From positions 11,034 to 75,033 of the IMG/VR virus record IMGVR_UViG_3300037107_000081: a stretch of DNA of 64,000 nt, one strand, 5' to 3'. Positions within the stretch are counted from its first letter, which is position 1; each line of letters begins with the position of its first letter. The stretch is from a virus. Shown in pieces: positions 1,177 through 53,532 of the stretch. The notes under the pieces were generated by a model. The model was given only the letters and a program-made list of their open reading frames with translations. It did not search any database and was not told the DNA's origin. The position numbers and the translations under genes were made by a program.

Positions 1177-1212
1177 ATACGTTGATTGTTTATTATTGAT
1201 TTTACCAGAGAG
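1177..1212 (-). promoter_or_regulatory. Bipartite motif copy CTCTGGTAAAA-N18-CGTAT
   Basis: Reverse complement reads CTCTCTGGTAAAATCAATAATAAACAATCAACGTAT; 1169-1226 is imperfectly repeated at 1307-1363. Confidence 0.6.
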
Positions 1213-1223
1213 TAGGAATTTAT

Positions 1224-1310
1224 ATGCAAATAGAAACTGTAGAATTTGATAATTTAGATTTATTATTTGAAGATATGATTAAATTTAAAGAAACCAATAA
1301 TGTTTGTTGA
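1224..1310 (+). CDS. Putative 28-aa peptide MQIETVEFDNLDLLFEDMIKFKETNNVC
   Basis: ATG after AGGA; sits between the two repeat copies; not in the ORF track. Confidence 0.3.
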   Translation: MQIETVEFDNLDLLFEDMIKFKETNNVC

Positions 1311-1312
1311 TG

Positions 1313-1347
1313 ATACATTGTTTTGATTGATTATTTTTACTAGAGAG
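1313..1347 (-). promoter_or_regulatory. Bipartite motif copy CTCTAGTAAAA-N17-TGTAT
   Basis: One mismatch to the consensus; followed on + by GGAG RBS and ATG 1361. Confidence 0.55.
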
Positions 1348-1360
1348 TTAGGAGTTTATT

Positions 1361-1726
1361 ATGGAAAAAAGAATATTGTGGGATGAATATAATTCTAATA
1401 CTCAATACCCAATGTACAAATGTGATGATATAAAAGCGCGCGTAAGAGTTTTTAATGGTAAAGAATTTGTTTGGTTAGATTGTTTTGAGAGTAATGGTAT
1501 AATTCGTGGTTCTTGGATTACAAAACAATTCACACATAAAGAAGCAAATTTACAGATTAAAAAATGTTTATCTGAATTTGATTGTGTTGTATGTTGGAAA
1601 ATTGGGTTTTTATTTAGTGAGCTTGGAGATGAATATAAAAATAAGCATGTAATGTTATCTATAATTGGTATAGATAAGTTATTAAAAAACAATATTTCAA
1701 ATGCTCCTGAGTGGTATATAAAATAA
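1361..1726 (+). CDS. Hypothetical protein
   Basis: 121-aa ORF with AGGAG RBS. Confidence 0.6.
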   Translation: MEKRILWDEYNSNTQYPMYKCDDIKARVRVFNGKEFVWLDCFESNGIIRGSWITKQFTHKEANLQIKKCLSEFDCVVCWKIGFLFSELGDEYKNKHVMLSIIGIDKLLKNNISNAPEWYIK

Positions 1727-1736
1727 TAGGATAATT

Positions 1737-2492
1737 ATGAGATGTATTAGTTGTGGTGTTGATGTTCCGCCTATTTGGGTTAAGGCAATTGAGTTAAATT
1801 CTTGTCCGTCGTGTGGTTCTGCTATAATGAATGAAGCCACCCAAGATCTATTGAAAGAGTTGTCTGATGCATTAACTCGCATGCCTAATAATCCTCAGGG
1901 AGTAGCTGGTTGGCTTTTGTCTAATTATCGTTTTCAGAAGATGGGTGATGCTGTTCCTGTTGAGAAATTTCATAATAAGGGTAGTGCTGTGGGTAGTGTG
2001 CCTGGTGAAATTAATGATAGCCAGTTAAAGATTGCGCCTAGAGTCAATGATTTTGTAAAGCGCAATGATGCCGAGAAATATGTAGCAAGGACCCAAGAGC
2101 TTGCTGAGAAGGCTAAGGGTTTAAAGAATAAGCAGATGGCGGAGTTTGCTTCTTTAATTAATGGGGTAAAGGATCCGTATGAAGATCCTGATCTGGTTGA
2201 GACGGTTGCTGATGCGTCTTCTGATGTTGAGGATCAAATGACATATGCATTATTAAAGTCTCAGGGAATTGATCCATTTGCTGAGTCTGGTAGTAATAAT
2301 GCTCCTACAGGTCCAATGAATGTAAGCCAGATAATTGATCAAGAAATTAAAGGGGCTAGTAAGATAAGTGAGTATGAACAGATAATGATGCAGAGTGATA
2401 GGGGTAGGGAGCAATTGCAAAATGAGCTGCACAAGAAGATTAAGGCTCAGGATGCGATAAATGGGGTTGGCAAGGGTGTGTTTAGGAGATGA
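1737..2492 (+). CDS. Zn-ribbon hypothetical protein
   Basis: CISC...CPSC at the N-terminus; C-terminal GxGxFRR motif. Confidence 0.7.
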   Translation: MRCISCGVDVPPIWVKAIELNSCPSCGSAIMNEATQDLLKELSDALTRMPNNPQGVAGWLLSNYRFQKMGDAVPVEKFHNKGSAVGSVPGEINDSQLKIAPRVNDFVKRNDAEKYVARTQELAEKAKGLKNKQMAEFASLINGVKDPYEDPDLVETVADASSDVEDQMTYALLKSQGIDPFAESGSNNAPTGPMNVSQIIDQEIKGASKISEYEQIMMQSDRGREQLQNELHKKIKAQDAINGVGKGVFRR

Positions 2493-2496
2493 TAGT

Positions 2497-3249
2497 ATGG
2501 TAGATGATATTAATTATTTTATTGGAAAGGTTAAGAATATTGTAGAGAAGTATGATTCTGAAGATATTAGGAACCATATTACTGATGAGGATTTTGATAC
2601 ATTTTCAATTTCTATTATTAATTTATTGGATCTTATTAAAAGGGCAAGGGTAGAAAAGACATTAAATGATGAAAAATATCCAATATCTAATAAAGATTCG
2701 TATAACCTTACATTTGATGAGTTAAAGGCTAGAAATGAAATAAAACTAGATAAGTTCATTAAAGACAATAATAAATCAAAGAGCCAATACGAAGAGCCAA
2801 CTGAAGAAGAAATTGATAAGATGAGGGAAGATGGAATTTATTATGTTAAATCAGGTTCAATATCCGATGAACCTTTCTTTTTAACTACTAATTTGAAAGA
2901 TATTATTGATTTTTGTATAACTGATAAGGTCAATTATTCACATGAAGAGCGGTTATCTAAAAGTGAAGGTGGTAGAGAGTATTTAGCATTGTGTAGGCAG
3001 AAGAAAGATAAGGGTAAGGCTGCTCTTTTAGCTGGTGAAGGCGGGTGTTTTAGTAGGGGTGTGCCTAGTCGTGTAAGTGAAAAATCAAAAGCAATAAGAA
3101 GGCATTTTGAGGAAGAGTCTGAGCGTAGGTGTAATGATCCTAATGTATTATCTAAATATATGGATGATGATACTAAATCTAAAATGAAAGATGCGCTTGA
3201 TGAAATAAAAAAGTTTAGTAGTGAATTTATTAAAGATCAAAAAGAATAA
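2497..3249 (+). CDS. Hypothetical protein sharing a ~35-aa motif with the 1737 ORF
   Basis: Likely start ATG 2497 after AGGAG; SEGGREYL..KK.K...GEGGCFSR. Confidence 0.65.
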   Translation: MVDDINYFIGKVKNIVEKYDSEDIRNHITDEDFDTFSISIINLLDLIKRARVEKTLNDEKYPISNKDSYNLTFDELKARNEIKLDKFIKDNNKSKSQYEEPTEEEIDKMREDGIYYVKSGSISDEPFFLTTNLKDIIDFCITDKVNYSHEERLSKSEGGREYLALCRQKKDKGKAALLAGEGGCFSRGVPSRVSEKSKAIRRHFEEESERRCNDPNVLSKYMDDDTKSKMKDALDEIKKFSSEFIKDQKE

Positions 3250-3250
3250 T

Positions 3251-3353
3251 ATACATTTCGGTCACTTTATTGATTTTACCAGAAAGATATTTGTATTTTC
3301 CGTCCCAAATAAATAAACTCTCTGGTAAAAATATAAAAACTAATAAATGTAAC
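3251..3353. promoter_or_regulatory. Back-to-back pair of the bipartite motif
   Basis: Minus copy: CTGGTAAAA 3282-3274, N18, TGTAT. Plus copy: CTGGTAAAA 3322-3330, N17, TGTAAC. Confidence 0.65.
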
Positions 3354-3365
3354 AAAAGGATTAAT

Positions 3366-3584
3366 ATGATTATCAGAAAAGATTTAGAAATTGCTGAATT
3401 AATAAAGCTAGGAGAAAAAGGAATTACTCAGGATGAACTTGAAGATGTTGTTTCTGAATATAAAGAAGAGCGTGAAAGGGTTGATGTAAGAAAATCATTT
3501 GAGGCTATGAAGGAAGAATATAAAAAAGAGAAATCCAAGAATAATTTTGAAGAGGGTGCTGGTGGTTTTAGGAGGACAAAATGA
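3366..3584 (+). CDS. Hypothetical protein, third member of the GGFRR motif group
   Basis: ATG 3366 after AAGGA; ends FEEGAGGFRRTK. Confidence 0.55.
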   Translation: MIIRKDLEIAELIKLGEKGITQDELEDVVSEYKEERERVDVRKSFEAMKEEYKKEKSKNNFEEGAGGFRRTK

Positions 3585-3856
3585 ATTTGGAAGATGAAGA
3601 AAAATCTAATAAAGAATTTAGTAAGTTTCTTTATTCTAATGGTGATGAAATTGTTGAGACTAATAATCATCTTTTATATTTTGATGTAGATAACCCAAAC
3701 TATGGAAATATTAGTTTTAATACACCCAAATATGGAGAGGTTATTAAGGTGTGTAATAATGGTGATATTTTTATTAAGGGTCGATTAGTTACCAACGATA
3801 TGGAAGTTGTTGATGGCATTAAAGAATTTTTCTTTATGGCAAGAGCGGAAAAATAA
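3581..3856 (+). CDS. Hypothetical protein
   Basis: ATGA overlap, GGAGG RBS. Confidence 0.6.
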   Translation: MNLEDEEKSNKEFSKFLYSNGDEIVETNNHLLYFDVDNPNYGNISFNTPKYGEVIKVCNNGDIFIKGRLVTNDMEVVDGIKEFFFMARAEK

Positions 3857-4035
3857 TGGATGAAGAAAGAGATTCATGTGGCCGTCCAGTAGAATGGATT
3901 AAAGAACAAACTCTAAGGTATATGAATAGGCGTGGATGTCGAGAAGATTATGCCAGATCTGTTGTAGAGGCACAGTATGATTGTGATGTGGAAATTTTTA
4001 GAGACATAGACGCACAAATAGCAAAAGATAAATAA
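3856..4035 (+). CDS. Hypothetical 59-aa protein (MDEERDSCGRPVEW...)
   Basis: Fills the gap exactly, with TAATG overlap upstream and abutting ATG 4036; below the ORF-track cutoff. Confidence 0.55.
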   Translation: MDEERDSCGRPVEWIKEQTLRYMNRRGCREDYARSVVEAQYDCDVEIFRDIDAQIAKDK

Positions 4036-4446
4036 ATGGCCAAAGAATTAACCCAAATAAGAATCATAGACAATAAGAAAGTCCGCCTTACTAATGACGA
4101 ATTTTCTTTTTATGAGGAAATTTGCAAGGCTTATGACCGCCCAAACTTCAAAGGAAAAGATTTGTTCCAGGATCATTTTGAAGTAAATGATGACGGTATT
4201 ATTATATTTGTTAAGCCTCCATACAAGAAATATTCATCAATGGAAGTCTTTACTTTCTTGGTTAGCCTAATGGTAAATCAACAACTAAGGATTTCTCAAG
4301 ATCAAGTTGCTGCATTTATAACCGAAGGAAAAGCTAAATTTAAAGAACAACTTGATGAAATTAATGTACTAAAAGAAGATATTAGTTCCTTAAAAGTTGA
4401 GGTCGAGCAGCAGAAGGTGTCACCCATAAAAGCAGATGACAACTGA
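4036..4446 (+). CDS. Hypothetical protein with C-terminal coiled coil
   Basis: 136-aa ORF in a tight operon. Confidence 0.65.
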   Translation: MAKELTQIRIIDNKKVRLTNDEFSFYEEICKAYDRPNFKGKDLFQDHFEVNDDGIIIFVKPPYKKYSSMEVFTFLVSLMVNQQLRISQDQVAAFITEGKAKFKEQLDEINVLKEDISSLKVEVEQQKVSPIKADDN

Positions 4447-4873
4447 TACTGATGTAAATGATCTCATAACTGGATTTGAAGAAAAATATCACAAGGTTCT
4501 ATTAAAGCTAGATTCCTTGTCTCGCGGCACATTCGATGAGGATGATGCTACTGCAATGGCTGCTTTGTGTTTAATTGCTCAAGCTGCCTTACTATCTGAT
4601 TTAGCTGCTTTTGATTTGCGGTCAAGATCCTTAAAGCGTGACATTGATTTTGCTAAAGCTACCGCATACGCAAAGCTGAGGAAAGATCCAATTGTTGATG
4701 GTAAAAAAGTTACAGAGAGCGCATTATCTCAACTAATTATAATTGATCCAGATGTAAAGCGTATTTCTGATGAGCAAAATATAGCTGAGCGAGATTATAA
4801 GAATTTGTCAAATATTCAATCATTGCTCAAAGAAGCTCATCTTACATTTAGATCTATAAAGAAACCGGTATAA
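4436..4873 (+). CDS. UvsY-like recombination mediator (putative)
   Basis: Helical protein with KKVTESALSQLIIIDPDV pattern, directly upstream of recA. Confidence 0.45.
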   Translation: MTTDTDVNDLITGFEEKYHKVLLKLDSLSRGTFDEDDATAMAALCLIAQAALLSDLAAFDLRSRSLKRDIDFAKATAYAKLRKDPIVDGKKVTESALSQLIIIDPDVKRISDEQNIAERDYKNLSNIQSLLKEAHLTFRSIKKPV

Positions 4874-4884
4874 TAAAAGGAAAA

Positions 4885-5874
4885 ATGGCTGCGAAAAAGA
4901 TAAATACTGACGAAAAACCAACAATGGGATCAAAGCTTAATATTAATGATCTTGTTGCTAAGGCTAAGGGGCGTTTTGATAAGAAGAAGTCACCACTTAC
5001 TACACGCATGAAGACTGGTGATATGATTGTTTTATCAACAGATCCTAGTGATTACATAACATCATCAGACCTAAATAAGTTTTGGAAGCCTTTGACTGGT
5101 CTTCTTGGTCTTGCTTATGGGCGTATTTTTCAAATTGCAGGCAGACCAGATTCAGGAAAAAGCACAGCCGCAATGTTATTTATGAAGGCTGCCCAAGAAC
5201 AGGGAGCTTTGGTTGTACTCTGGGATGCCGAGGGTAAGTTTGATTCAGTACGCTACAAGGATAGGATTGGTGGTGATCCTTCTCAGATTGTAGTGGCACC
5301 AAGCAGAAATATTCTAGAGGGTGTTCAACAGGTGGTTGCTTATGTAAAGGCAGCTAAAGAAATGGATCCTGATTGTAAGATCTTGATTAATTGGGATTCT
5401 GTTGGAGCATCAATTAACTCTGCCGAAGATGAAGAGAATGATGATTATAGCAAGCAACCAGGCGTTACAGCAAAGGAAGTTTCTTGGGCAATCAGACGAT
5501 TCAATCAGCTAATTGAGAAGTTCCGTGATGAAGATGGAAATTATACAATAGCTATTCTTTGTATCAATCAGGTTTATGCAAAGATTGGTTTCATGCAATC
5601 TGGTTATCAACAAAAGGGCGGGGCAGAACTGGAATATCTTAGTTCCCTTATTCTAGAAATGTCGAGGAAGAAAACGCTCACCCGTACTAAGAATAAGCAA
5701 AAGGTAAAATACGGAATTGTAACATCTGCAAAGGTAAAGAAGAATCATTTGTTTGGTGGTGAAGATTGTATTGCCGAGCTTGATCTTTGTGTTTCTGCAT
5801 CTGGAATTGATTTGATGGAAGAAGTAAAGAGTAAGATACCAGATGTAGATGATTTGAACGAGGATGATGAATAA
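4885..5874 (+). CDS. recA: RecA/UvsX-like recombinase
   Basis: Walker A GRPDSGKST, DAEGKFD, WDSVGA, INQV, GGAEL.Y.SS, KVKKNH. Confidence 0.9.
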   Translation: MAAKKINTDEKPTMGSKLNINDLVAKAKGRFDKKKSPLTTRMKTGDMIVLSTDPSDYITSSDLNKFWKPLTGLLGLAYGRIFQIAGRPDSGKSTAAMLFMKAAQEQGALVVLWDAEGKFDSVRYKDRIGGDPSQIVVAPSRNILEGVQQVVAYVKAAKEMDPDCKILINWDSVGASINSAEDEENDDYSKQPGVTAKEVSWAIRRFNQLIEKFRDEDGNYTIAILCINQVYAKIGFMQSGYQQKGGAELEYLSSLILEMSRKKTLTRTKNKQKVKYGIVTSAKVKKNHLFGGEDCIAELDLCVSASGIDLMEEVKSKIPDVDDLNEDDE

Positions 5875-6578: not shown

Positions 6579-6597
6579 CTTAAAATACCGAGGATTA

Positions 6598-6906
6598 ATG
6601 ACATCTTTTAATGCACAACCAGTAGATAGATCTGCTATTAAACCGATATATATTATAGTGGCAGAAGACCCGTCCGAACCCGAAGGAATTGCTTATTATA
6701 AGTCGCAAGATTTAAATGAAAACTCAGCATTTCTAGAGATAAGAATTGGTTACCTGCTAAATAAAACACAAGCGGTAAAACTAGTTAAAGATCCTCATGC
6801 ATCAATAAATGGCAAAACGGAACCAAAAGCAATTAATCGCAAAATTCCGTGGAGCAGAATAATTCGCATAGATCACATAACGTACAACAAAAAATCGCAA
6901 GATTAA
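6598..6906 (+). CDS. Hypothetical protein
   Basis: 102-aa ORF, GAGG RBS. Confidence 0.6.
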   Translation: MTSFNAQPVDRSAIKPIYIIVAEDPSEPEGIAYYKSQDLNENSAFLEIRIGYLLNKTQAVKLVKDPHASINGKTEPKAINRKIPWSRIIRIDHITYNKKSQD

Positions 6907-6943
6907 TTATCCATATTAAAATATGGACTTGAGTAAGTAGGAA

Positions 6944-7129: not shown

Positions 7130-7228
7130 ATATACTATATATGATTAAGTGGAGGTTTTTGATTAGTCTAAATTCTTAACATTTATAAATTTCTTATTAA
7201 ATCTTAACTTATTAAATGTAAATTAAAA

Positions 7229-7288
7229 GTAAACCAAAACTGTAAACCAATCAAGGTAAACAAAATAACAAATAAGGTAAACAAAATG
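7229..7288 (+). repeat. GTAAAC(C/A)AA x4 in the SSB leader
   Basis: Copies at 7229, 7242, 7256 and 7277; the last runs into the ATG. Confidence 0.6.
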
Positions 7289-8205: not shown

Positions 8206-8817
8206 ATGAAAAGAGTAATTGGGCTTGACGCATCGACCTCAGTAATAGGGATTGGAATTATTGATTATGATGGTTATAATACAATCCTAGTCCATTGTGA
8301 ATATTATAAACCAGACAAAACTAATGGTATTTTGGAAATGTTGCGTCAGGCAAGAGATTATATATTAAGTATAGCTATAAAATATAATATTGATGAGTTT
8401 GTTATTGAAGATTATATTAGATTTATGAAGGGTAGTTCTTCGGCGGCTACTACAATTCCTCTTGCAATATTAAATATGACTCTTAGATTAGCTATTCTTG
8501 ATAATTTAAATATTAATCCTGAATGTCTTAATGTTTTAAAAATTCGTCACACACTAAAATTATCCAAACAATTACCAGCCAAAGAGGATATGCCGGATCT
8601 TGTAGCTCATCATTTAAATATTGATTATCCATGGTTATATAAAATAAACAAGCGCACAAAACAACAAGTAATTATGGAAGAATCTCGGGATGTGGCTGAT
8701 GCAATTTCTGTCGCACTAGCTTATATAAAACTTCAACAAAAACCACCAAAGAAATCCAAACCGGTAAAAATAAAATCCAAAACAAATGTAAAATCAAAAT
8801 CTTCTGGTAAAAAATAA
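8206..8817 (+). CDS. RuvC-like Holliday junction resolvase
   Basis: IGLDASTS..G.G, VIED and DVADAISVA acidic catalytic motifs. Confidence 0.8.
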   Translation: MKRVIGLDASTSVIGIGIIDYDGYNTILVHCEYYKPDKTNGILEMLRQARDYILSIAIKYNIDEFVIEDYIRFMKGSSSAATTIPLAILNMTLRLAILDNLNINPECLNVLKIRHTLKLSKQLPAKEDMPDLVAHHLNIDYPWLYKINKRTKQQVIMEESRDVADAISVALAYIKLQQKPPKKSKPVKIKSKTNVKSKSSGKK

Positions 8818-9797
8818 TGAATACGCACGAAGCTTGTCAATTATTAGGAATACCCGTAAATTCCCCAATGGAAGATGCTAAGGCCGCATTTAAAAAACTA
8901 GCAATACAATATCACCCAGATCGAAATAAAGATCCAGGCGCAGAGGATAAGTTTAAGGAAATTAATACAGCTTTCCAGTTCCTTGAGAAATATGGAACCA
9001 ATCCTCAAAACAATATTAATACGGGAGGTTTTGGTTTTAATATTGATTTCGGTGACCTTAATCAACGTATGGCCCAGATGTTTCACCAGAATTTTGTCAT
9101 TAATCATCCAGGCCCTCCAATTGTAATAACCATATCAATTCCTTTCGAGATGTCTGTCCTTGGTGGAAATAAAGAAATTACATATAATAGATTAGTGAAA
9201 TGTGCCAATTGTATAGATGGAAAAACTAAAGTGCCTTGTAAGAAATGTAATGGTACAGGTAAACGAAAATATGGCGGTGATTTTAATGGGGGATTCAAAC
9301 CAGCTGATGATAGAGAACTTCCCTGTAATGGATGTACAGCTACCGGATCCACTACCTATGGAATATGTAAAGCCTGTAATGGATCATCTAAAACACAAAC
9401 TTCAGAGACATTTTCAATCCAAATCCCACCAGGTGTTCAAAATGGTAACAACTTAATAATGAATGGTAGAGGAAATTATCGGATTATGGATTTGTATGAT
9501 GCACTTGTTATTGTTATAAACGTTGAAAAAGACCCTGATTTTATCCTTGTTGGAAATGATGTTATATCTAATGTTGAGCTTAGTTTGTTGGAAGCCCTCA
9601 AAGGAACAAAGAAAAGCTTAAGAACTATAAAAGGTGAGAAAACATTACAATTCAATCCAAAGATAAAAAACGGTGATAAAATAAAGGTATCAGGATTCGG
9701 AGTACCACCAAACGGCCATCATGTATACGAAATTACTGTAAACTATCCAGAAGATGTGTCAGAATTAATTAATGTACTGGAAAAAGATATTATATAA
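8817..9797 (+). CDS. dnaJ: DnaJ chaperone
   Basis: J-domain HPD, CxxCxGxG-type repeats, C-terminal SLLEALKG domain. Confidence 0.92.
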   Translation: MNTHEACQLLGIPVNSPMEDAKAAFKKLAIQYHPDRNKDPGAEDKFKEINTAFQFLEKYGTNPQNNINTGGFGFNIDFGDLNQRMAQMFHQNFVINHPGPPIVITISIPFEMSVLGGNKEITYNRLVKCANCIDGKTKVPCKKCNGTGKRKYGGDFNGGFKPADDRELPCNGCTATGSTTYGICKACNGSSKTQTSETFSIQIPPGVQNGNNLIMNGRGNYRIMDLYDALVIVINVEKDPDFILVGNDVISNVELSLLEALKGTKKSLRTIKGEKTLQFNPKIKNGDKIKVSGFGVPPNGHHVYEITVNYPEDVSELINVLEKDII

Positions 9798-9800
9798 ATT

Positions 9801-9836
9801 CTCTGGTAAAAATAAAGTAAATGACCAAAATGTAAC
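9801..9836 (+). promoter_or_regulatory. Bipartite motif copy CTCTGGTAAAA-N19-TGTAAC
   Basis: Intergenic, upstream of ATG 9864; spacer contains ATGACCAAA. Confidence 0.6.
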
Positions 9837-9863
9837 AAATGGATAATATTATAAAGGAAAACA

Positions 9864-11038: not shown

Positions 11039-11515
11039 ATGGGTAAAAAAAATAATAGATCGAATGGGTATCAACATCTTTTTGCAGAACAAAGTTATCC
11101 GATTGAGATTTTGTCGGAATTTAGCGAGAGTCAAGGATTAGTTGAGAATTACAATCCAGATGATAAAGAAGAATTGTTGATATTAAAAGAAAGGCTTATT
11201 GAAGAATTTTGGAGAATTGCTAAGGAAAATTTAACCAAAAGACAATTAGAAGTAATTACACTGATGTCGAAGAATTACACCCAGATCGAGATCGCGAAAA
11301 TTTTGCGCGTGAACCAATCTTCGATCACGAAGAGCCTGAACGGAAATTCAGATTATCGCGGTACTGTAAAAGGAGATGGAGACAAGAAATCAAGATCTAC
11401 AAAGATCAGGGTGTACGGAGGCATCCGCCGTAAAATGAAAAAGATTGCTGACAAAGATCCTAGAGTGATTGAAATCCTTGAACAAATGGCTGATATTCAT
11501 TCACAATATTCTTAG
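11039..11515 (+). CDS. Sigma-70 region 4-like HTH protein (phage sigma/regulator)
   Basis: LTKRQLEVI.L....YTQIEIAKIL.VNQSSI. Confidence 0.7.
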   Translation: MGKKNNRSNGYQHLFAEQSYPIEILSEFSESQGLVENYNPDDKEELLILKERLIEEFWRIAKENLTKRQLEVITLMSKNYTQIEIAKILRVNQSSITKSLNGNSDYRGTVKGDGDKKSRSTKIRVYGGIRRKMKKIADKDPRVIEILEQMADIHSQYS

Positions 11516-14484: not shown

Positions 14485-17400
14485 ATGCCAGTTTCAATGG
14501 ACCTAAGACTTCTAGCCAAAAAGCTGGAAAAAAGCAGTGATGATGTTTTGGTCAATGCTTCCTTAAAAAGCCCTAAGGAATTCGAAAGAGTTTCAATGGC
14601 CGTTGCTGCTGCATCTACTTTGCTAGAAGAAGTTGCAAATGACATGGATAATCAAGCTTCTTTTAGTATTACAGAACAACAGCTCGATGAATTGGCCGCT
14701 CTCGCAAGTTCGTTTGATGAGAGCAATGATCCACTATTGAGAAAACAAGCTTCTGTTATTGATGAGTTATTACTTAGCATTGCGGCTCCAAAAAATGCCA
14801 TTGCTGCTGCTAATAAAGCTACTGCCGACGAGATTAAGAGATTGCGTGAACAGCATAGCAAGGGTCGTCGTGAAGAAGCTTATGATGCGCCAAGGGAAGC
14901 TCTGCACAAGATGGAAAATGCAGCTGGCCAAGCCAAAGCAGTTGAGCAGCAGGTAAAGCGATTTGTGCCTATGGAAGCTCCTTTGCAAACTCGTTATCCC
15001 CCGGATCGTCCTGGTGGGCAGATGACTCGCATTACTGACCATGTTTATCAGGATATAGTTACTGGAATTATCTATGACTATAAAGCCGGATACAAGACTC
15101 AGAAGGGCAATGAGGTTCCTGGTGGATCTGTTGAGAATCAAACTCGTGAACTGGGTGATTCTCGTAACCAAGGCACATCTATGTTTGAGAGTCGTCAGTC
15201 TTTGATGGGGCGCTATGCCGAGGACAATTCTGATCTAAAAAAAAATTCAGCAATAGATAAAATTGCAATAGCGCTGAAATCTATTCGTGATTTTGCGCCT
15301 AAATTATTAAATGCTGCTATTGATAATGCTCGGGATGATGGTCTTTCAACATCTCAGATTGCCGATATTCTTGCTTCAGATATTTCCAGCAAAAGGGGAT
15401 TAGAAGCCATAGCTCAATATGAAGGAGACGATGAATATCAAGTAAACCCTTTAGCCGATGAACTTGATGACATTTCTGAAGAGGAGAGGGATTATCAAGG
15501 GGCTAGGAGATTATTTAAAGCAATTTCAGATTCAGGTTGGAAAAATAGTCCAGCTTTAATTGCTCATCATATCGCAGCGTTATCAGAACACGGTGCATCT
15601 CCATTGACAATAGACTTGCTTCAAAGAGAATTTTTATTTGGAGAATCATTAGATGAACCAAATGATGATGGTCCAATAACTGTACGACCACATGCTGAAA
15701 TAGAAAGCGCACCAACTGTATTCTCACCATTAAGTGCTTCATCAAAACAAAGCTTAATGGCTCTTGCATTGAGTGCGATCCAAGAATTAGCACCGCATCT
15801 TCTAAAATCGGCTGTTGCAAAATCAAAAGAATTATTAACTGATCAACAAATAAAATCAGTTTTATCATCTAATTTTGTTAACAAGTTCGATAAACAAGCT
15901 GATGAAATAAAGATTGCTGAATCTCTGTTCCCGCATTTAAAAGATTTGGGCTGGAATGATTTAATAGAACAGCACACAAAAGTAATGTCGGCTCTAGGAA
16001 TCAGCCAAGATAAAATACAAAAACTCTCTGGTAAAAAAACTAATAGAATTAATGTATTATCAAATATTTTAAAATCAGCTGGTGTAAGAGAGATTGAATT
16101 TACAGATGAGCTGCCAGATTTAGAATTAGATAAAGAACCAGAGTTTGTTAATGTATTAGATCCAAATGCTGAGGAAGAAGAGGTTCCTACTGAGCTACCA
16201 AGAGATACTATTCCATCTCCACCTCCAGCAAATAAACCAACATTACCGCCATGGAATCCAAAGGTAAAAGAGCATGTGTTGACAGAAAGGGATAAAGAAA
16301 GGCAAGTTAAACCATTTACAGAAAAGCACAATGATATATTAAAGGGTGTTGTTAGTTCTTTATCTTTACCTTGGGGTGAATATATAAGCAAGCACCCAGA
16401 AACAAAACTAAGCTCTGAAAAAGTTAGACAATTAGAAACAGAAATTGGAAATCTTGTTCAGGCAGCTAAGACAGGAAGAGGTAATGATACTCCTGGTTTT
16501 GAAAAAATATTTGGAAGCTTTAAGTTCAAGGGCGAAACAATGCCTGTTGCTGTAGATAAACTTCCTAAAGATGTTAAAGATGCCATGAAAGATATGTTTA
16601 TGGCAAAGGAAACTACTGAATCTGTTGCTAAATATCTTATGAAGCTTATTAGGGCTGGCGCAGATTTTGAGATTATTCCGCTCAAAGAATTGCAAAAGGC
16701 TCGTGTAGCAATGCTTGGGCCGCAAAATAAAAGACAAGCTGAAGAATTAAGACAGAAAGTTTTTGGTGGAATTTTAAGAAAAGCAACTAATTATATCCTG
16801 GCTGGTAAAAATCTTCCTGCGATGTTTGATTCTCAAGAAGGCGATAACGAAATTACAGCGCTTAAGTTTACAAAAATGCTTGAGGATATTGTGGGTGAAG
16901 TAACTACAACTAGAAGGAAGAAGGGGTTGGTTGCTGAGTTGCCAGAGGATAAGATTTCTTTATTTAGTGATCCTCAAGAATATATACAGATGTTTAGGGA
17001 AGCTCAAGAAAAGTTTCCAACAATATCTCAAAAATCAATGGCTGATAAACTTCACAATGCAGAAATGAGAAAGCAGCAGAGCCAATATATGGAAGAGAAG
17101 GGGTATATTTCTCCGGATGAAAAATTAATTGGTGGTGCTAGTGCTCGTTTCATGTTGCCCTGGCAGTTGGAGGGTGATTATGGTGGAGAGTGGACCGAAG
17201 ATTTCCAGGGTATGAAGAATCTTTTCGAAAACCCAAAGGAATATGAGCATAAATATATTGAGGCCAAACACAAGTTTCCATATAAGAGACAAGAAGTTCC
17301 CAAGGAAGTTTATCAGATTAGGGCTGCAGAACCAGAAAATGTAGCAAATATTCCGAGAGAAATTAAGGATAAGATATTTAATTTGATGAATTCAGGAATA

Positions 17401-22409: not shown

Positions 22410-22478
22410 CACCACCTATATCAACCAAATTTCTATATATCACCACCTATATCAACCAAATTTCTATATATCAACCAA
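22410..22478. repeat. 31-bp perfect tandem repeat (2 copies plus partial)
   Basis: CACCACCTATATCAACCAAATTTCTATATAT at 22410-22440 and 22441-22471. Confidence 0.9.
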
Positions 22479-22490
22479 GTCAACTAATTT

Positions 22491-22544
22491 CTTCTGGTAA
22501 AAAATAATAAATGACCAAAATGTATAATAAGCAACTGATATATA
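22491..22544 (+). promoter_or_regulatory. Bipartite motif (CTGGTAAAA-N18-TGTATAAT) followed by TGATATATA
   Basis: 22494-22502, 22521-22528 and 22536-22544, upstream of ATG 22593. Confidence 0.6.
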
Positions 22545-26707: not shown

Positions 26708-26765
26708 TGATATATAAACAAATAGATTCTCTGGTAAAAATAATAAAAACCAAAGAGTGTATAAT
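26708..26765 (+). promoter_or_regulatory. TGATATATA plus bipartite motif (CTGGTAAAA-N18-TGTATAAT) upstream of the portal gene
   Basis: 26708-26716, 26731-26739 and 26758-26765. Confidence 0.6.
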
Positions 26766-38910: not shown

Positions 38911-39248
38911 TTTTCAAGCAGGGATCTTGTGAGGAAGAGCTTTTTGAGGGTATGCAAAATGCTCAACAAGAAGCAATTGTAGCTGAAGATCAACAGTATG
39001 AGCGTTTAATTTTGGCAGCAATGGAAGAATTAAATGCTGCGGCTGAATGTTTCGAAAAAGCCGGAAGAACAGCGAGGGCAGCAGAAGTTACTACCGTTAT
39101 GATTGCTTTGGCTGACTCAAAAAAGAAAACAAAACCTTCTGGTAAAAAAAGTGAAATGATAAAAATGTTTAAAAATTTCGGATTCACCCCAAAAGACCTG
39201 GGATATGCTTCTGATGAGGATGCTGAAAACGAAAAAGAGTGTGAGTAA
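38907..39248 (+). CDS. Small hypothetical head-module protein
   Basis: 113 aa, GAGG RBS; L..AAE.FEKAG pattern shared with the 37296 and 38695 ORFs. Confidence 0.62.
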   Translation: MIFKQGSCEEELFEGMQNAQQEAIVAEDQQYERLILAAMEELNAAAECFEKAGRTARAAEVTTVMIALADSKKKTKPSGKKSEMIKMFKNFGFTPKDLGYASDEDAENEKECE

Positions 39249-43382: not shown

Positions 43383-43383
43383 A

Positions 43384-46205: not shown

Positions 46206-47440
46206 TGAATCAAGATATTTGGGATGAATTTGAAAAAATAGCAGTTGCACAAGGATTAATTGCATTGTCCGAAGATGATTATTCTAAACCGTTGCCTAAG
46301 CGTTATGATTCGTTGTCTGATGATGCGATCCGTTTGCTTTATAACATTGAACCGGAACCAGAAAAAGACAAGACTATTATAGAAGTAGCACACCCAGAAA
46401 CCTTTACTGTTGGTACTGCTTATGATGCCATGAACTCGGTTGTTGAAAATGAACACCAACACCAAGATATGATGGCCTATATTGCGTTGAAAGTTCCAAA
46501 CGGCCACCTCACACAAAGACGTTATGTTGCTGCAAAACAAGAACTGTTAAACTCATTAATACGATCAGCTTTCACTCTCGATAATAAAGATGAAGAAGGC
46601 CTGATGGTTCTTGCTGATTCTTGCGCAAAAAGATTGGATGAACGAAGTGAACAAATTACTAAAGAGGGTATTGCCCCTTTAGCAGTTGCCGGGGTTGCTA
46701 GTGCTGCTGCATTACTCGGCATTGCTTACTATTTTATATGGGGAGCTCCAACAGCACAAAATGTATACACCAATGCACAAAGGGTTTTAGATGCTCTTGA
46801 ACCATTATCAGATCAACCATACGCAGATCCTATCAAAAAAGATATGACCACTGTAATGAGTATGGCCGAACAACTGCATGCAATGAGAACACAACTTGCA
46901 ACCGTTCATTCTGTTGATGATGTCGTTAATGCCGCACAACAAGCTTCTGAAAATGCAAAAATAGAAGAGGCAAAAACCAAGAGAGATGCTTACGTTGCTC
47001 AGTTAAGGAAAATTTATGCAGCTCTTCCGGAATGGGTTAGAGCAATTAGGTCGGCTCACGTAAATCAAACAAGCACCAATGATTTCTTCGCTAAACTACA
47101 GGAAATTGGCAGCATCTTTACAGAGGGCGGTGCTGATGAAAAATTGGTCCATGAATTAATTGGTAAGTCTGATTGGTTCGCAAAGATAAAACAATACATT
47201 CCGGGTACACAAGATCATTATGCACCAGGCCAAGACAATTCAAAAGAAGCTGTGCATGGCGGCCTAAAAGAAGCAATCGAAAATGAAATATCGGTTATGA
47301 AACAATCTTTTAATAAAGCCCAAGAACAAGTACCAGAAATTCAAAACTCATTGGATATCGCCGCACAAAAAACCAAACCATCTACCCCAGACGATGCAAA
47401 AAATATGTTGGTCAAAGATACAGTCGATAATTTTACATAA
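46205..47440 (+). CDS. Putative internal/ejected protein with a transmembrane segment
   Basis: TKEG directly followed by IAPLAVAGVASAAALLGIAYYFIWG. Confidence 0.62.
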   Translation: MNQDIWDEFEKIAVAQGLIALSEDDYSKPLPKRYDSLSDDAIRLLYNIEPEPEKDKTIIEVAHPETFTVGTAYDAMNSVVENEHQHQDMMAYIALKVPNGHLTQRRYVAAKQELLNSLIRSAFTLDNKDEEGLMVLADSCAKRLDERSEQITKEGIAPLAVAGVASAAALLGIAYYFIWGAPTAQNVYTNAQRVLDALEPLSDQPYADPIKKDMTTVMSMAEQLHAMRTQLATVHSVDDVVNAAQQASENAKIEEAKTKRDAYVAQLRKIYAALPEWVRAIRSAHVNQTSTNDFFAKLQEIGSIFTEGGADEKLVHELIGKSDWFAKIKQYIPGTQDHYAPGQDNSKEAVHGGLKEAIENEISVMKQSFNKAQEQVPEIQNSLDIAAQKTKPSTPDDAKNMLVKDTVDNFT

Positions 47441-47444
47441 TCTC

Positions 47445-47479
47445 CTCTGGTAAAAATAATAATAATCAATGAATGTACC
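47445..47479 (+). promoter_or_regulatory. Bipartite motif copy CTCTGGTAAAA-N18-TGTAC
   Basis: 47447-47455 and 47474-47478, overlapping the start of the 47469 ORF. Confidence 0.55.
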
Positions 47480-47972
47480 AAATGAAATAATAGCCTGGAA
47501 AAAGTACCTAACTACTAAGGCGCTTTATTCAGGACCTATTAATAAAGATAATAACCTTGAATTCAAATCAGCTATCAAAAACCTAGAATCACTCTTAACC
47601 AAACATTCCCCATCTATAAAAGGTATGATCTGGAAAAATAATACCGTAAATAAAAATGTTTCTATCGTCGATGTAAATAATGCCCTAAACCTATTGTCTA
47701 AATTCGCCCAAGCCGATCTAGATGCTTTAGGTCCCCCAGATGCAGATCAACGAGGTACCATAATTAATCAAATGTTTTTAAGCCAGGATATGAAAAATTC
47801 AGACAATTGGAGCGAATCAAATAACCAAAATCAAGGCCGCGAAGGCTCAACTATCCCAAAAAATCTAAATCCCTCTGGTAAAAAAATAACTCAAGAAATA
47901 CCGCAAAAACACCAAAATATTGACGATAGAATGAAGGCACTAACTGATTTATTAGAAAATGTGAAAAAATAA
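47469..47972 (+). CDS. Hypothetical protein (degenerate PG-binding-like N-terminus)
   Basis: I.AWKKYL...LYSGPIN; KFAQ motif. Confidence 0.55.
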   Translation: MNVPNEIIAWKKYLTTKALYSGPINKDNNLEFKSAIKNLESLLTKHSPSIKGMIWKNNTVNKNVSIVDVNNALNLLSKFAQADLDALGPPDADQRGTIINQMFLSQDMKNSDNWSESNNQNQGREGSTIPKNLNPSGKKITQEIPQKHQNIDDRMKALTDLLENVKK

Positions 47973-49976: not shown

Positions 49977-50098
49977 CATTTAAACATAATTTTCGATATA
50001 TTATTTCATAATTAAAGTTTTTGTCGAGAACCTGCTACTGAACCGATATATTAATTAGTACATGCAATGAGCCTGTACATTAATATTAGGAGTTAGTT

Positions 50099-52027
50099 GT
50101 GAATAATAAAATAATAGAGTTATATGAATCTGGAAAATCAAGTTATGAGGTTAGCAAATTAACTGGTGTTTCTGCTACTCAAGTGCGTCGAATATTAAAT
50201 AAATATTCTGTAAAAATGAAAGATAATAAGACGCCAGATAAAATTGAAGATCAAATAATTGAGAGATATACAAACGGAGAATCATCAGAAAAAATATCTG
50301 CTGATCTTGGGATTAATGGAACAACCGTTTGTAGAATATTAAAAAGACGTGGTATTGATCTTAGGTCTCCAAGTCAAAGGCATCGTATATTACCATTATT
50401 TGAAGATTACCTTGATAATATGGATACTGAGGAAAAAGCATATTTTCTTGGGTTTATGTATGCTGATGGAAATGTTAGCTCTTCAATGGGAGCCTTTTCG
50501 TTAACTTTACATAATAAAGATATAGAAATATTACAAAGGTTTTCTAATTTGTTTTATGGTGAAGATAGAACTGTTTCAAGAAAAGAGCCATATGTTACAT
50601 TATCTATTTATAGTCTTCATATGAAAGAAAAACTTATTAGTTATGGTTGTATGCCAAATAAAACATTTAAAACAAAGATGCCTACGTTTTTGCGACAAGA
50701 TTTAGTTAGGCATTTTATTCGTGGTTTATATGATGGTGATGGTTGTATTTCTACGTCAAGTAATATGATTAGGGTAATATTAACTGGAAGCTTAACATTT
50801 CTTGAAGAAGTTAAAGATGCTATATTGTCTTATAAACCAAGTATACAACCCATTATAAGATTAACCAAACATAAAACAAATGTTGCAGATATGGTTATGG
50901 GAAAACAAGCTGATTGTGTTGATTTTCTTAATTGGATTTATCAAGATGCAACAATATATCTTAGTAGAAAGTATATATCATATCATAGCGTTTTGGAATT
51001 GTGTAAGCCTCCAAAAAATTACGGATCAACAAATATAGTATCATATAATGGACAAAAACTAACTAGTGAGTTTGTATCATCTATACCTGTTGCTGAACGT
51101 GAAAATATAGCACAATATTTACTAAGTTATTTTAGACGTCAAGGTTTTCCATATCAAACATTTTATAAAGTAGAAATGGAAGAAGATTTTAATAAGCTAT
51201 GTAATCTTGAAATTAAAATAGAAAGTGAAATAAAAACACTACCAGAATGTGGACTTAAAGCATTCAAACATTTTTGCCCACATTTTCATGAAGTTAAAAA
51301 TAATAAAATGTTAAGTATGGTTGAAGTATTTAATGATGATGGTTTGTTAATGGATGTGATTAGAAATCGTTTAGGAATTACTTATAAAGAAACGTTTAAT
51401 ATTACGGGAAATATGATTAGGCAGGGCATTAGAAATTCTAGAAGTGGTTTTGCAGCCAGTCTATTTAAACCATCTTTAGCTAAGGGTGTATATGATAAAT
51501 TTGTACCTGATAATGGTGTTGTATTAGATATATCTGCTGGGTTTGGGCAAAGAATGTTAGGGGCAATGGCTAGTAAAAAGGTTAGTAAATATATTGGTAT
51601 TGATCCTTGGGATAAGCAAATAGAGGCACTTTCTAAAATAAAAGAATTCTTTAATTCTGATAAGGTAGAGTTGCACTGTGCTGGTTCTGAGAATTTTTAT
51701 TTGCCAGAAAACTCTATTGATTTTTGTTTTTCATCACCACCATTCTTTGATAAGGAAATTTATACCGGTGATGTAAATCAAGCATGTCATAATCGTAGTT
51801 TTTCTGAATTTATTGAGGATTGGTGGGTTCCAACTGCTACCATGGTATATAAATCATTAAAGCCAAATTCATTATTTGTATTAAATATGAATTTATCAAT
51901 GGCTAAAATAATGATTGAAAGAGTAGAAAAGTTATTTAAGGAAATTGATCAGTTTTATATTTCTTATTTAAGGAATTATATTTCTTCAGAAGGTAAAGAT
52001 ACTTTTTTTGTTTTGAAGAAGATTTAA
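50099..52027 (+). CDS. HTH + LAGLIDADG homing-endonuclease domain fused to an amino-DNA methyltransferase
   Basis: Two HTHs; YFLGFMYADG and FIRGLYDGDG; then FKPS.AK, DISAGFGQR (motif I), YIGIDP, FSSPPFF..E.Y (motif IV). Confidence 0.8.
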   Translation: MNNKIIELYESGKSSYEVSKLTGVSATQVRRILNKYSVKMKDNKTPDKIEDQIIERYTNGESSEKISADLGINGTTVCRILKRRGIDLRSPSQRHRILPLFEDYLDNMDTEEKAYFLGFMYADGNVSSSMGAFSLTLHNKDIEILQRFSNLFYGEDRTVSRKEPYVTLSIYSLHMKEKLISYGCMPNKTFKTKMPTFLRQDLVRHFIRGLYDGDGCISTSSNMIRVILTGSLTFLEEVKDAILSYKPSIQPIIRLTKHKTNVADMVMGKQADCVDFLNWIYQDATIYLSRKYISYHSVLELCKPPKNYGSTNIVSYNGQKLTSEFVSSIPVAERENIAQYLLSYFRRQGFPYQTFYKVEMEEDFNKLCNLEIKIESEIKTLPECGLKAFKHFCPHFHEVKNNKMLSMVEVFNDDGLLMDVIRNRLGITYKETFNITGNMIRQGIRNSRSGFAASLFKPSLAKGVYDKFVPDNGVVLDISAGFGQRMLGAMASKKVSKYIGIDPWDKQIEALSKIKEFFNSDKVELHCAGSENFYLPENSIDFCFSSPPFFDKEIYTGDVNQACHNRSFSEFIEDWWVPTATMVYKSLKPNSLFVLNMNLSMAKIMIERVEKLFKEIDQFYISYLRNYISSEGKDTFFVLKKI

Positions 52028-52049
52028 TAAAATAATCCTCCAAACAAAT

Positions 52050-52075
52050 AGCCTGGCTTAACCGCCGGGCTTTTT
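52050..52075 (+). terminator. Intrinsic terminator
   Basis: AGCCTGGC-loop-GCCGGGCTTTTT. Confidence 0.75.
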
Positions 52076-52105
52076 CATTTAAAATTGCTTGATATATACT
52101 TATGC

Positions 52106-53359
52106 ATGAAGTTTAGATTCCATATTTTAGGACACCCGCATACCGCAGTAAATGATGATTATTGTGGTTGTGCCTATACGCAAAAGCACAAAAAATTTAT
52201 TAAAATGATGGCTTCCCGCGGCCACGAAATAATCCTTTATGCTAACGAAGGGTCTATAGTTCCTCCTGGTGTGGAATTCGTACAAATATTTACTGAAGCT
52301 GAGCGGGCGTCATGGTTTGGTACTCATGATAGGCAAAAGCAATACGATCTTCAATGGGATGGCAACGTTGATTATTGGCGGCTGTTTAATGAACGGGCGG
52401 CACCTGAGGTATTAAAACGTGCTCGTAAGGGTGATTTTATACTCACATTATCTGGTGAAAATTGCAATACGTATGTAGGCGATCAATTCCCTGGGTCATA
52501 TGGAGGGATAGCATCGAAGGTAATGTATGTAGAGTATGGAATTGGGTATTATGGAACTGTTTCAAGGTATCGTGTGTACGAGAGCAACACACATCGGGAG
52601 TGGCAAAAAGGTGCTGTTGATTGTAAGGGTGAAGATAATCTTGATGCTGTTATTTACAATTATTTTGATCTTGACGAATTTAAGATGCCCGCTATACGAG
52701 ATTCGCGAATACCCACTGATCCTTATTATTTATTTATAGGGCGATTGAATACAGATAAAGGATATAATATTGCAATTGATGTTACTAGGGATATAGGGGC
52801 TAAGCTTATAATAGCGGGGCAGGGTAATATAGGTGAGGTTCCTTCTCATGTAACATTGTGGGGGCATGCAACTATCAAGGAGCGGGCTGAATTAATGGGT
52901 AATGCGATAGCTACATTTACGCCCACTCATTATAGGGAGCCATTTGGGGGTACGGCTACAGAGACACAGTTAAGTGGAGGAGAGCGTGGTGGTACTCCGG
53001 CAATTTCGACAGACCACGGGGCATTTTGTGAGACAGTTGAACGAAGGTGGAGATGCGCAAGCCATAGGGAATTTTGTATGGCTGCATTGGCTGCTCAGAA
53101 ATTAAGTTTAGAGGAAAGGCTAGCAATTAAAAAGCGTGCTGAATCATTATTTTCATTGGAAGCAATAGCACCACAGTACGAGCGATATTTTTTCAGATTA
53201 ATGACATTGTGGAAAGCTGGTTGGTATGAGATGAGTGATCCGGATGATTATGATACATTCGAAGATTTTATGGAAGGCAAGAAGACAGTAAGGGGAGTTA
53301 TTGGATCATCTCTACCAATGATTACGCCTGCTGGTTTGAATGGACCTGGTGAACCTTAA
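52106..53359 (+). CDS. Glycosyltransferase, GT-B/GT4-like
   Basis: GHE..LY, LFIGRL..DKG, AGQG, EPFGG...E, GTPAISTD.GAF.ETV. Confidence 0.85.
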   Translation: MKFRFHILGHPHTAVNDDYCGCAYTQKHKKFIKMMASRGHEIILYANEGSIVPPGVEFVQIFTEAERASWFGTHDRQKQYDLQWDGNVDYWRLFNERAAPEVLKRARKGDFILTLSGENCNTYVGDQFPGSYGGIASKVMYVEYGIGYYGTVSRYRVYESNTHREWQKGAVDCKGEDNLDAVIYNYFDLDEFKMPAIRDSRIPTDPYYLFIGRLNTDKGYNIAIDVTRDIGAKLIIAGQGNIGEVPSHVTLWGHATIKERAELMGNAIATFTPTHYREPFGGTATETQLSGGERGGTPAISTDHGAFCETVERRWRCASHREFCMAALAAQKLSLEERLAIKKRAESLFSLEAIAPQYERYFFRLMTLWKAGWYEMSDPDDYDTFEDFMEGKKTVRGVIGSSLPMITPAGLNGPGEP

Positions 53360-53380
53360 GTTTTACTTGATCCGTTTGAA

Positions 53381-53532
53381 TATACATTGATTGTTTATTA
53401 ATATTTTTACCAGAAGAATATATTTATTTTTGGCGGTAATGACCAAGATGTATTTACCAGAAGAGATGTTTGTTGGGCGGCTAAATATATAAAAATTCTC
53501 TGGTAAAAACAATAAGATGACCAAAGTGTATT
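53381..53532. promoter_or_regulatory. Back-to-back pair of the bipartite motif plus partial copies
   Basis: Minus copy: CTGGTAAAA 53413-53405, N18, TGTATA. Plus copy: 53500-53508, N18, TGTATT. Partial GACCAAGATGTAT/TTTACCAG at about 53441-53460. Confidence 0.65.

Follow-up and report, generated by a model that had tools for sequence, protein, structure and literature searches.

A dispersed two-box DNA element, possibly a phage-specific promoter class, in a jumbo-phage fragment

Almost nothing is known of gene timing in uncultured huge phages without an RNA polymerase of their own. The stretch of DNA analysed here, referred to as the window, consists of 64,000 nucleotides corresponding to bases 11034-75033 of a 75,033-base IMG/VR virus contig (record IMGVR_UViG_3300037107_000081), and carries a dispersed two-box element in which the core CTGGTAAAA is followed, after a spacer of 16-19 nt, by TGTA and a -10-like hexamer. 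Positions are those of the window unless preceded by "contig".

Several described systems share parts of this architecture. Promoters read by extracytoplasmic function (ECF) sigma factors have a -35 box with AAC and a -10 box with CGT, 16-17 bp apart, and do not need a full TATnAT; that of the ECF-type factor SigW of Bacillus subtilis is TGAAAC-N16-CGTA. Phage P1 has dispersed asymmetric C1 operators, and T4-type phages have promoter-early stem-loop (PeSL) cassettes, short promoter-bearing repeats that border variable genes. The middle promoters of phage T4 combine a MotA box with a sigma-70 -10 element, the sigma factor being appropriated by MotA and AsiA (PMC2988021, PMC6755090); the box, (a/t)(a/t)(a/t)TGCTTtA, lies 12 +/- 1 bp from the -10 element, with its centre at -30 (PMC2988021). 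Cluster A mycobacteriophages carry stoperators, asymmetric sites of ~13 bp that hold a single orientation relative to transcription (PMC9283540).

The element resembles the T4 middle promoters as a phage-specific class with dozens of copies, which keeps the host -10 (TAtaaT), often with TG, and replaces the -35 with an asymmetric phage box of the kind used by a monomer-type factor, with UP-like A/T tracts possible upstream. The stringent host -10 element that marks the T4 middle type is present in copies here. However, the box TCTCTGGTAAAA ends 20 bp from the hexamer, with its centre near -38, and T4 middle promoters, unlike the present copies, are not set antisense at gene ends. As both the sequence of the box and its distance differ, the element does not belong to the T4 middle class. 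With ECF promoters it shares the two boxes, an A-rich -35-like box starting with TG and a short -10 box (C/T)GTA(T), CGTA occurring once here, and relatives of the phage encode a sigma factor of ECF size. Yet the boxes are GGTAAAA and TGTA, 18 apart (20 from the TAA aligned to AAC), which makes the spacer at least 2 nt longer; the -10 extends to a full TATnAT; and a relative carrying the 219-aa sigma factor is without the two-box motif.

Stoperators and P1 C1 operators are asymmetric sites of ~13 bp with 20 or more copies, spread over the entire phage genome and placed mostly in short intergenic gaps at gene ends or starts; the 12-nt box agrees with them in number and placement, but in this phage it always comes with a second box. 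Stoperators, though, are single-box sites of temperate phages with an immunity repressor, whereas the element has a second, -10-like box at a fixed distance and a third of its copies reversed. Like PeSL cassettes, the copies are units at the borders of variable genes and may drive modular exchange, but they have no stem-loop, and neither circular nor exchanged forms were seen in metagenome contigs. The lack of a conserved stem-loop also distinguishes the element from intrinsic terminators and N4-type hairpin promoters. By eye, sigma-54 spacing, Bacteroidota-type boxes and the archaeal TATA/BRE (B recognition element) arrangement do not fit.

Anatomy and placement of the element

Fifteen strong copies lie on the 75-kb contig, about one per 5 kb; 12 are in the window, and the others are just upstream of it, at contig 3316(-), 3360(+) and 7993(+). 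The motif, a conserved unit of ~50 nt, reads A-rich tract / yTCT-CTGGTAAAA / N16-19 / AATGTATnAT. The window contains exact CTGGTAAAA-N16-19-TGTA nine times, where 100 shuffles predict 0.01 matches. When a two-block weight matrix was scored over the whole 75,033-base contig, with 20 shuffled genomes as control, the scores were bimodal: the 15 copies fell between 37 and 48.5, the next best site reached 26.6, and the shuffles never exceeded 19.5. The spacer is N18 in 11 copies, N17 in two, and N16 and N19 in one each; in three other metagenome runs, the sole N19 copy (9803) lacks one base at 9817/9818, which makes its spacer N18. Thirteen of the 15 copies are intergenic, in a contig of which roughly 6.7% is non-coding (binomial P = 5e-14). 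All long contig genes are on the + strand, and ten copies point with the genes and five against them (binomial P = 0.15 for bias).

An earlier note, made from the letters of the window, had described this element as dispersed, with a spacer of N16-19 and mostly intergenic copies, which the counts above bear out, together with an enrichment over shuffles and a sharp N18 mode. Every coordinate that it gave is in the sequence, including the variants at 1208 (-, CGTA), 1343 (-, CTAG, N17) and 39139 (+, TGTT). Its copy at 8761 (CCGG, N17) was dropped, since the TGTA is present at N17 but the matrix score is below 12. The four minus-strand copies and both divergent pairs that it reported stand, and the contig beyond the window adds a fifth reverse copy and a third pair.

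From its upstream end, the element comprises an A-rich tract of ~13 bases, at -17 to -5 relative to the core, then yTyT, the invariant core CTGGTAAAA, A-t-A, an A-rich spacer, and AA-TGTA-T-n-A-T. TGACC(A/G)AA is found in four spacers, and ACCA in six. After TG, the base counts are T15 A14 T12 n A12 T9 (n = 15 copies), each above background, and the downstream box TATnAT agrees with the sigma-70 -10 consensus TATAAT at every specified position. If the hexamer occupies -12 to -7, nine of the 15 copies, all five reverse ones among them, have T at -7; CTGGTAAAA then spans -41 to -33, and the A tract about -58 to -46. Hence TCTCTGGTAAAA falls at about -44 to -33, outside the normal -35 slot. No TTGACA-like hexamer lies 17 +/- 1 bp upstream, where the slot reads AAAAWA, and a conserved CTGGTA is found 22 bp upstream of the hexamer; a consensus sigma-70 promoter scanner does not call the element sites.

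Four further copies on metagenome contigs read TGTA-TAAT (twice), TGTA-TTAT and TGTA-TACT. These contigs match only 9798/9800-9834, or end at 3351, and have unrelated flanks, their similarity ending exactly at TGTA; these partial matches show that there are further copies of the element elsewhere in the genome. Rfam and tRNA scans of the window were empty, and a literature search for the word CTGGTAAAA returned unrelated papers only. In viral contigs, TCTCTGGTAAAA-N16-19-TGTA gave, among the matches listed, single chance matches only; CTGGTAAAA-N7-11-TGACCRAARTGTA gave nothing in viral contigs and two unrelated GC-rich chance matches in metagenome contigs.

The placement of the copies differs with their orientation. 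For eight of the ten forward copies, a start codon follows within ~100 nt. Forward copies precede, by 1-105 nt, the start codons of the exonuclease, polymerase, small-gene, primase/LuxR and tail-fibre blocks, of the portal gene and of an orphan gene, with two copies lying in genes. Downstream of copy 3322, the start codon at ATG 3366 is confirmed by a relative's orthologue. The five reverse copies, which hold the best -10 matches of all, lie 2-23 nt past stop codons or share a gap with another reverse copy. Three of them form back-to-back pairs with a forward copy at a distance of 39-86 nt (contig 3316(-)/3360(+), window 3282(-)/3322(+) and window 53413(-)/53500(+)). A hairpin terminator is found at none of the four gene ends that precede reverse copies, and a hairpin with a T-run at eight other block ends. 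Along the contig, the order is a reverse/forward pair, a forward copy, two reverse copies, a reverse/forward pair, six forward copies and a reverse/forward pair, so that long gene blocks begin at a forward copy and end at a reverse one.

The ten forward copies, from contig 3360 to window 53500, are separated by 4633, 6362, 6481, 6225, 6466, 4237, 12408, 8308 and 6053 bp. The typical distance is ~6.3 kb and the coefficient of variation 0.33 (P = 0.0012), and four consecutive intervals agree within 4-5% (P = 5e-5, uniform null); both statistics were chosen post hoc, and five sites only are in phase. Of the two in-gene copies, that at 16028 encodes SGKKTNRINV in a variable linker, with homology to the relative resuming directly after it, and that at 39139 is built partly from ancestral Lys-rich coding sequence. 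Both were shaped in place with the reading frame kept, which points to selection for a DNA signal there rather than simple insertion. The boxes at 16027-16041, 39136-39150 and 47872-47886 share one frame, Ser-Gly-Lys-Lys. As the same DNA word often encodes Walker-A GSGKT in distant relatives, counts of in-gene boxes need care.

Some copies have particular surroundings. A 31 bp x 2.4 tandem repeat (95% identical; 22399-22473), rich in TATATC/GATATA, lies directly upstream of forward copy 22494. Between two reverse copies (1225-1314) there is a 29-codon open frame with a Shine-Dalgarno-like AGTAGGA. On the + strand, three reverse copies show AGTAGG / TTAGGAG at their "upstream" ends, one of these ends being the ribosome-binding site of the gene at 1361. 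Around the pair 53413/53500 (window 53424-53580), TTGG(G)CGGnTAA occurs three times (53424, 53472, 53564), and the other two back-to-back pairs are centred on short GC-rich words (CCGTCCC, GCCGGT).

The single upstream box in relatives

A search with the terminase returned relatives that include contigs of 392, 219 and 216 kb, which identifies the present contig as a fragment of a jumbo phage. Its completeness is 18% (CheckV), and ~80% of the phage genome (~400 kb) lies outside it. The 392-kb relative (G001) is syntenic with the contig, at a nucleotide identity of 66-84%. The phage is an uncultured one from peat; many peat metagenomes contain DNA near-identical to the window, with some runs covering 90-99% of it, and a blastn search with 7.9 kb had no match among deposited phage genomes. 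The Shine-Dalgarno boxes and hairpin terminators speak against a Bacteroidota or archaeal host.

The two-box form was not found in these relatives. In five with terminases 82-86% identical, CTGGTAAAA-N15-20-TGTA is absent, bar one chance match. In the 392-kb genome nothing comparable emerged from a dyad search able to recover the motif from the present contig; the top words there are a clustered regularly interspaced short palindromic repeat (CRISPR) and tRNA arms. The relatives' orthologous gaps, at the terminase/portal junction and before the primase block, are without the element, are ~36-40 nt long, and are shorter by ~45-50 nt and ~30 nt, respectively; in the shorter terminase/portal gap, the element is absent from ten relatives. 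Hence the two-box form is lineage-specific, as the relatives have neither the -10 partner nor the element at orthologous intergenic sites.

The upstream box has a wider distribution. YTYTGGTAAAA outnumbers its backwards control word by 17 to 0 in this contig, 31 to 2 in G001, 12 to 1 in G002, 4 to 0 in G004 and 3 to 2 in the more distant G003. The commonest form in G001, CTTTGGTAAAA, has 19 copies against 0.69 expected, eight of them intergenic, in both orientations and with no conserved downstream sequence; the box-only site at 47875 has an orthologue in the same genome. Judged by these comparisons, the upstream box alone is a family trait, and the two-box element looks like a lineage-specific elaboration of this older single box, placed in situ by selection or conversion. 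A promoter class might thus originate when a box scattered through a family gains a -10 partner at a fixed distance in one lineage. The genes without a homologue in the relative (2461-3249, 52085-53359) directly precede reverse copies.

Candidate functions

The best explanation, to which we would give an even chance, is that the element constitutes a factor-dependent, phage-specific promoter class read by the host RNA polymerase, the reverse copies being antisense or convergent promoters at block ends. The TG-TATnAT would act as a sigma-70-type -10 element with no normal -35 box. A phage-encoded factor, either an activator or a phage sigma region 4, would bind TCTCTGGTAAAA, with a UP-like A-rich tract upstream, and once bound would recruit the host polymerase, a role comparable to that of the MotA box in T4 middle promoters. 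The forward set would start or boost the exonuclease/polymerase, primase, portal, head-gene and tail-fibre blocks, and the five reverse copies would be the same promoter aimed back into the 3' end of the preceding gene. As they occupy the position of a terminator, these most likely close the block by convergent transcription or antisense RNA. Canonical TTGTCA-17-TATAAT promoters are also present in the window, indicating that the host sigma factor reads a normal -10. The earlier note had likewise suggested a phage-specific promoter, possibly read by a sigma-like protein encoded at 11039; the promoter part is strengthened by the TATnAT, by the N18 +/- 1-2 spacing, a spread that recognition of the sigma type tolerates, and by the unstructured AT-rich DNA before starts, while the proposed reader is not supported.

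Protein 11039 (11039..11515, +) has a region-4-like LuxR/GerE helix-turn-helix only, and no region 2 was found, and on these grounds its identity as a sigma factor was rejected. Its residues 17-100 match positions 71-154 of a 165-position sigma70-ECF model with a score of 21.8 bits, where the cut-off is 42.9, its match to the GerE/LuxR helix-turn-helix is weak, and its best solved relative is the C-terminal part of SigH (3mzy_A). The family, which numbers 366 proteins on contigs of huge phages, all sharing the recognition helix VNQSSITKS, and whose members are named LuxR/CsgD-type regulators in the sources, is far wider than the motif, and an orthologue (61-66% identical) occurs in a relative without the two-box form. 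A link between the LuxR-type protein and the box found no support: 1.2 Mb around 80 orthologues held 26 boxes against 11 control words, some of them Walker-A codons (GSGKT).

Other candidate readers were sought in the contig and its relatives. No multisubunit RNA polymerase was found in the contig or three relatives, and a search for a T7-type RNA polymerase, run without a positive control, had no match in the contig or relatives. A 219-aa sigma factor of ECF size (TIGR02937, 63.5 bits, r4_2-type region 4) is encoded by three relatives; the gene is absent from the 75-kb fragment, which does not reach that region. MotA and AsiA (PF09010, PF09158) had no match in the contig or in three relatives (one 91% complete), nor did any control genome match.

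Several observations weigh against this promoter reading. Firstly, the sole metatranscriptome run covers four of 30 bins (5958-7089, 15016-15174) and none of the motif sites. Secondly, TG abuts the hexamer (TGTATAAT; -14/-13), rather than forming the canonical TGnTATAAT (TG at -15/-14). Thirdly, at 3322 a Shine-Dalgarno box (3355-3360; 4-9 nt past TGTA) lies upstream of a start 7 nt after the hexamer, and at 47447 the ATG of the next gene (47469) is inside the spacer, meaning that near-leaderless mRNAs would be needed, or service to genes further on. Fourthly, five of the 15 copies would drive antisense transcription where there is no gene to be expressed. Fifthly, the relatives' upstream box has no -10 partner, occurs in both orientations and lies partly in genes, so that a function for the box must exist without a -10. 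Sixthly, a promoter model does not lead one to expect forward copies at even intervals of ~6.3 kb. Finally, the contig is only part of the ~400-kb genome.

A somewhat unlikely alternative is that the element is a dispersed, non-initiating binding site for a phage DNA-binding protein, whether a stoperator-like operator or roadblock, or a genome-organising site. The protein on the asymmetric TCTCTGGTAAAA would mark boundaries, with forward copies at starts, reverse copies at ends and regular internal sites, and could act as a barrier to elongating polymerase, serve to load a condensin-like or replication factor, or define where loops begin and end. This would accommodate the over-representation of the lone box in -10-less relatives (31 against 2, and 19 against 0.69 expected, in G001) and its occurrence in both orientations. 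Blocks are bracketed from contig 3360(+) to window 1208(-), from 3322(+) to 53413(-) and from 53500(+) onward, forward intervals of 6362, 6481, 6225 and 6466 bp follow in succession, one in-gene copy stands exactly where even spacing requires, and an SMC_N-like gene is present at contig 77-451. The alternative that the earlier note had raised, an orientation-independent binding or organising site, thus has some support, from the lone box in relatives, the two orientations and the even forward spacing. Yet a binding site leaves unexplained a good TATnAT hexamer at sigma-type spacing, and the N16-19 variation would turn two rigidly linked binding domains against each other by as much as 100 degrees. 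In addition, the spacing statistic was post hoc, with five sites only in phase, stoperators hold one orientation to transcription (PMC9283540) whereas the ratio here is 10:5, and neither an integrase nor a repressor, nor any lysogeny gene, was seen in the 75 kb.

It is improbable that the copies represent a recombinogenic or mobile cassette, similar to PeSL, that recently multiplied and marks places of gene gain or loss, carrying promoter activity along with it. Relatives whose terminase is 86-91% identical do lack the element, orthologous gaps are shorter in relatives, and the variable genes at 2461-3249 and 52085-53359 lie immediately before reverse copies, but no transposase or recombinase is linked to the copies, and no copy shows presence/absence polymorphism in four metagenome runs. 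There are sub-families with common spacers (a 31-mer of reverse copy 53413(-) is identical to that at contig 3316(-), and the copies at contig 3316(-) and window 1208(-) have ~70 nt in common, which 1343(-) resembles more loosely), although most spacers differ between copies. Short direct repeats flank two copies (ATATAAA at 26731, ATATTATA(T)AAA at 9803); against this, they are inconsistent in length, 7-mers are expected by chance in AT-rich flanks, and there are no terminal inverted repeats. With two such copies and differing lengths, target-site duplication was not taken as evidence. The in-gene copies, moreover, rework coding sequence in frame, with no insertion. The earlier note's suggestion of a recombination site was not borne out either: the sole metagenome "joint", 1209 to 9791, has a 22-base side and was rejected as a deletion, fitting a further back-to-back pair elsewhere in the genome.

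A highly improbable reading is that of an oriented genome-organising signal, in which the family-wide 12-nt box is read by a phage protein and has been coupled to polymerase binding in this lineage. Forward sites may open blocks and reverse sites close them, reminiscent of loop-boundary sites, and internal forward sites may be held ~6.3 kb apart, even by writing one into coding sequence. If this were true, such sites could divide a phage chromosome of 400 kb into transcription-replication or DNA-loop domains.

An RNA-level signal, acting in a 5' or 3' untranslated region, as a processing site or as a terminator, with the pairs forming long AU-rich hairpins in read-through RNA, is hardly credible: TGGT...ACCA pairing is possible in six of the 15 copies, copy 26731 folds at -9.5 kcal/mol (z = -2.9), and the three pairs would form a 9-bp CUGGUAAAA/UUUUACCAG stem, but seven of eight copies fold no better than shuffles (z -0.2 to +1.8), there is no conserved stem-loop and no covariation (the change to CTAG at 1343 is uncompensated), the pairs occur at three loci only, and no Rfam family matches the window.

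Two features, if confirmed, would have no precedent in the architecture of phage genomes: block ends with reversed promoter copies instead of terminators, and the near-regular spacing of forward copies. Without such confirmation, the element would be one more phage-specific promoter consensus. The contig combines three kinds of punctuation, namely canonical sigma-70 promoters, terminator-plus-GATATATA units common with relatives, and the lineage-specific two-box element.

Feature coordinates and other signals

Table 1. Copies of the two-box element, related boxes, GATATATA units and genes, in window positions unless marked contig.
Feature	Position	Strand	Details
Forward copy	3306..3355	+	Core 3322-3330, N17, TGTA 3348-3351; right half of back-to-back pair; 14 nt before ATG 3366
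Forward copy	9787..9838	+	Core 9803-9811, N19, TGTA 9831-9834; upstream of zinc-ribbon, DnaG-type primase and LuxR-type helix-turn-helix genes
Forward in-gene copy	16012..16060	+	Core 16028-16036, N16; highest matrix score; in 1118-aa gene
Forward copy	22478..22528	+	Core 22494-22502, N18, TGTATAAT; 31-bp tandem repeat before, GATATATA 12 nt after
Forward copy, terminase/portal gap	26715..26765	+	Core 26731-26739, N18, TGTATAAT
Forward in-gene copy	39123..39173	+	Core 39139-39147, N18, TGTT; in 113-aa gene; 105 nt before next start codon
Forward copy	47431..47481	+	Core 47447-47455, N18; ATG 47469 of next gene within spacer
Forward copy	53484..53534	+	Core 53500-53508, N18; right half of pair; 91 nt before tail-fibre block
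Reverse copy	1174..1224	-	Core 1200-1208, N18, CGTATCAT; 11 nt past DNA polymerase III alpha stop
Reverse copy	1310..1359	-	Variant core CTAGTAAAA (1335-1343), N17, TGTATCAT; upstream end abuts start codon 1361
Reverse copy	3248..3298	-	Core 3274-3282, N18, TGTATATT; 2 nt past stop 3249; left half of pair
Reverse copy	53379..53429	-	Core 53405-53413, N18, TGTATATT; 23 nt past glycosyltransferase stop
Chimeric partial copy	53436..53465		Within 53413/53500 pair; forward 3' half ATGACCAAGATGTA joined to reverse 5' half TTTACCAGAAGAG; read from sequence
Lone upstream box in gene	47871..47883	+	CCTCTGGTAAAA; CGCA in TGTA position; orthologous box in 392-kb relative
Lone upstream box	8800..8812	+	CTTCTGGTAAAA; spans stop/start junction 8815-8819; without TGTA partner
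Exact matches	3322, 9803, 16028, 22494, 26731, 47447, 53500	+	Pattern search of window
Exact matches	3282, 53413	-	Pattern search of window
GATATATA units	8191-8198, 22537-22544, 26709-26716, 39816-39823, 52091-52098
SMC_N-like gene	contig 77-451
dNMP kinase	contig 1210
PD-(D/E)XK exonuclease	contig 3441
DNA polymerase III alpha	contig 8558 to window 1166
RecA-like protein	4885
DnaJ	8817
Split DnaG-type primase	9864, 10217
Large terminase	24838
Portal	26792
Head protease fusion	33879
Glycosyltransferase	52085
Collagen-like tail fibres	54479, 59414

A second signal consists of a hairpin terminator with a T-run, followed by GATATATA just before a start codon, and the 392-kb relative shares these units at orthologous positions. 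The distance from GATATATA to the ATG is exactly 7 nt at 8191 and its orthologue, and likewise at 52091, a gap that suggests leaderless mRNAs from a single-box, late-type promoter. In G001, GGTCGAGAG occurs at ~15 intergenic sites (e.g. 141154, 149492, 158658, 208095), 4-10 nt past TAnAAT-like hexamers; the sole occurrence in this contig is at base 3409, downstream of the forward copy at contig 3360. GGTCGAGAG resembles a conserved start or leader of transcripts from a further class of promoter.

The CRISPR array of G001 (G001:91,700-92,650) has ~14 repeats, GTTTCAACTCACGCTCCTTCTCAGGAGCGATGTAAC, with spacers of ~36 nt. The repeat had no match when searched for in genome contigs as a route to the host, and a solitary copy of it lies at 63.7 kb.

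Within the window, an 852-nt stretch has no + strand gene, and contains minus-strand open frames at 11512-11829 and 11996-12334. One minus frame, of 105 codons and with no start codon, resembles a homing-endonuclease remnant (...ILEHQGPQH...), and has 76% DNA identity to G001:22828-23031, an unrelated location. The other minus frame encodes 112 aa, and the stretch also holds a near-consensus sigma-70 promoter, TTGTCA-17-TATAAT, at 11871-11899 (+). A further minus-strand gene, of 87 aa and with a good Shine-Dalgarno box, lies at 21799-22062.

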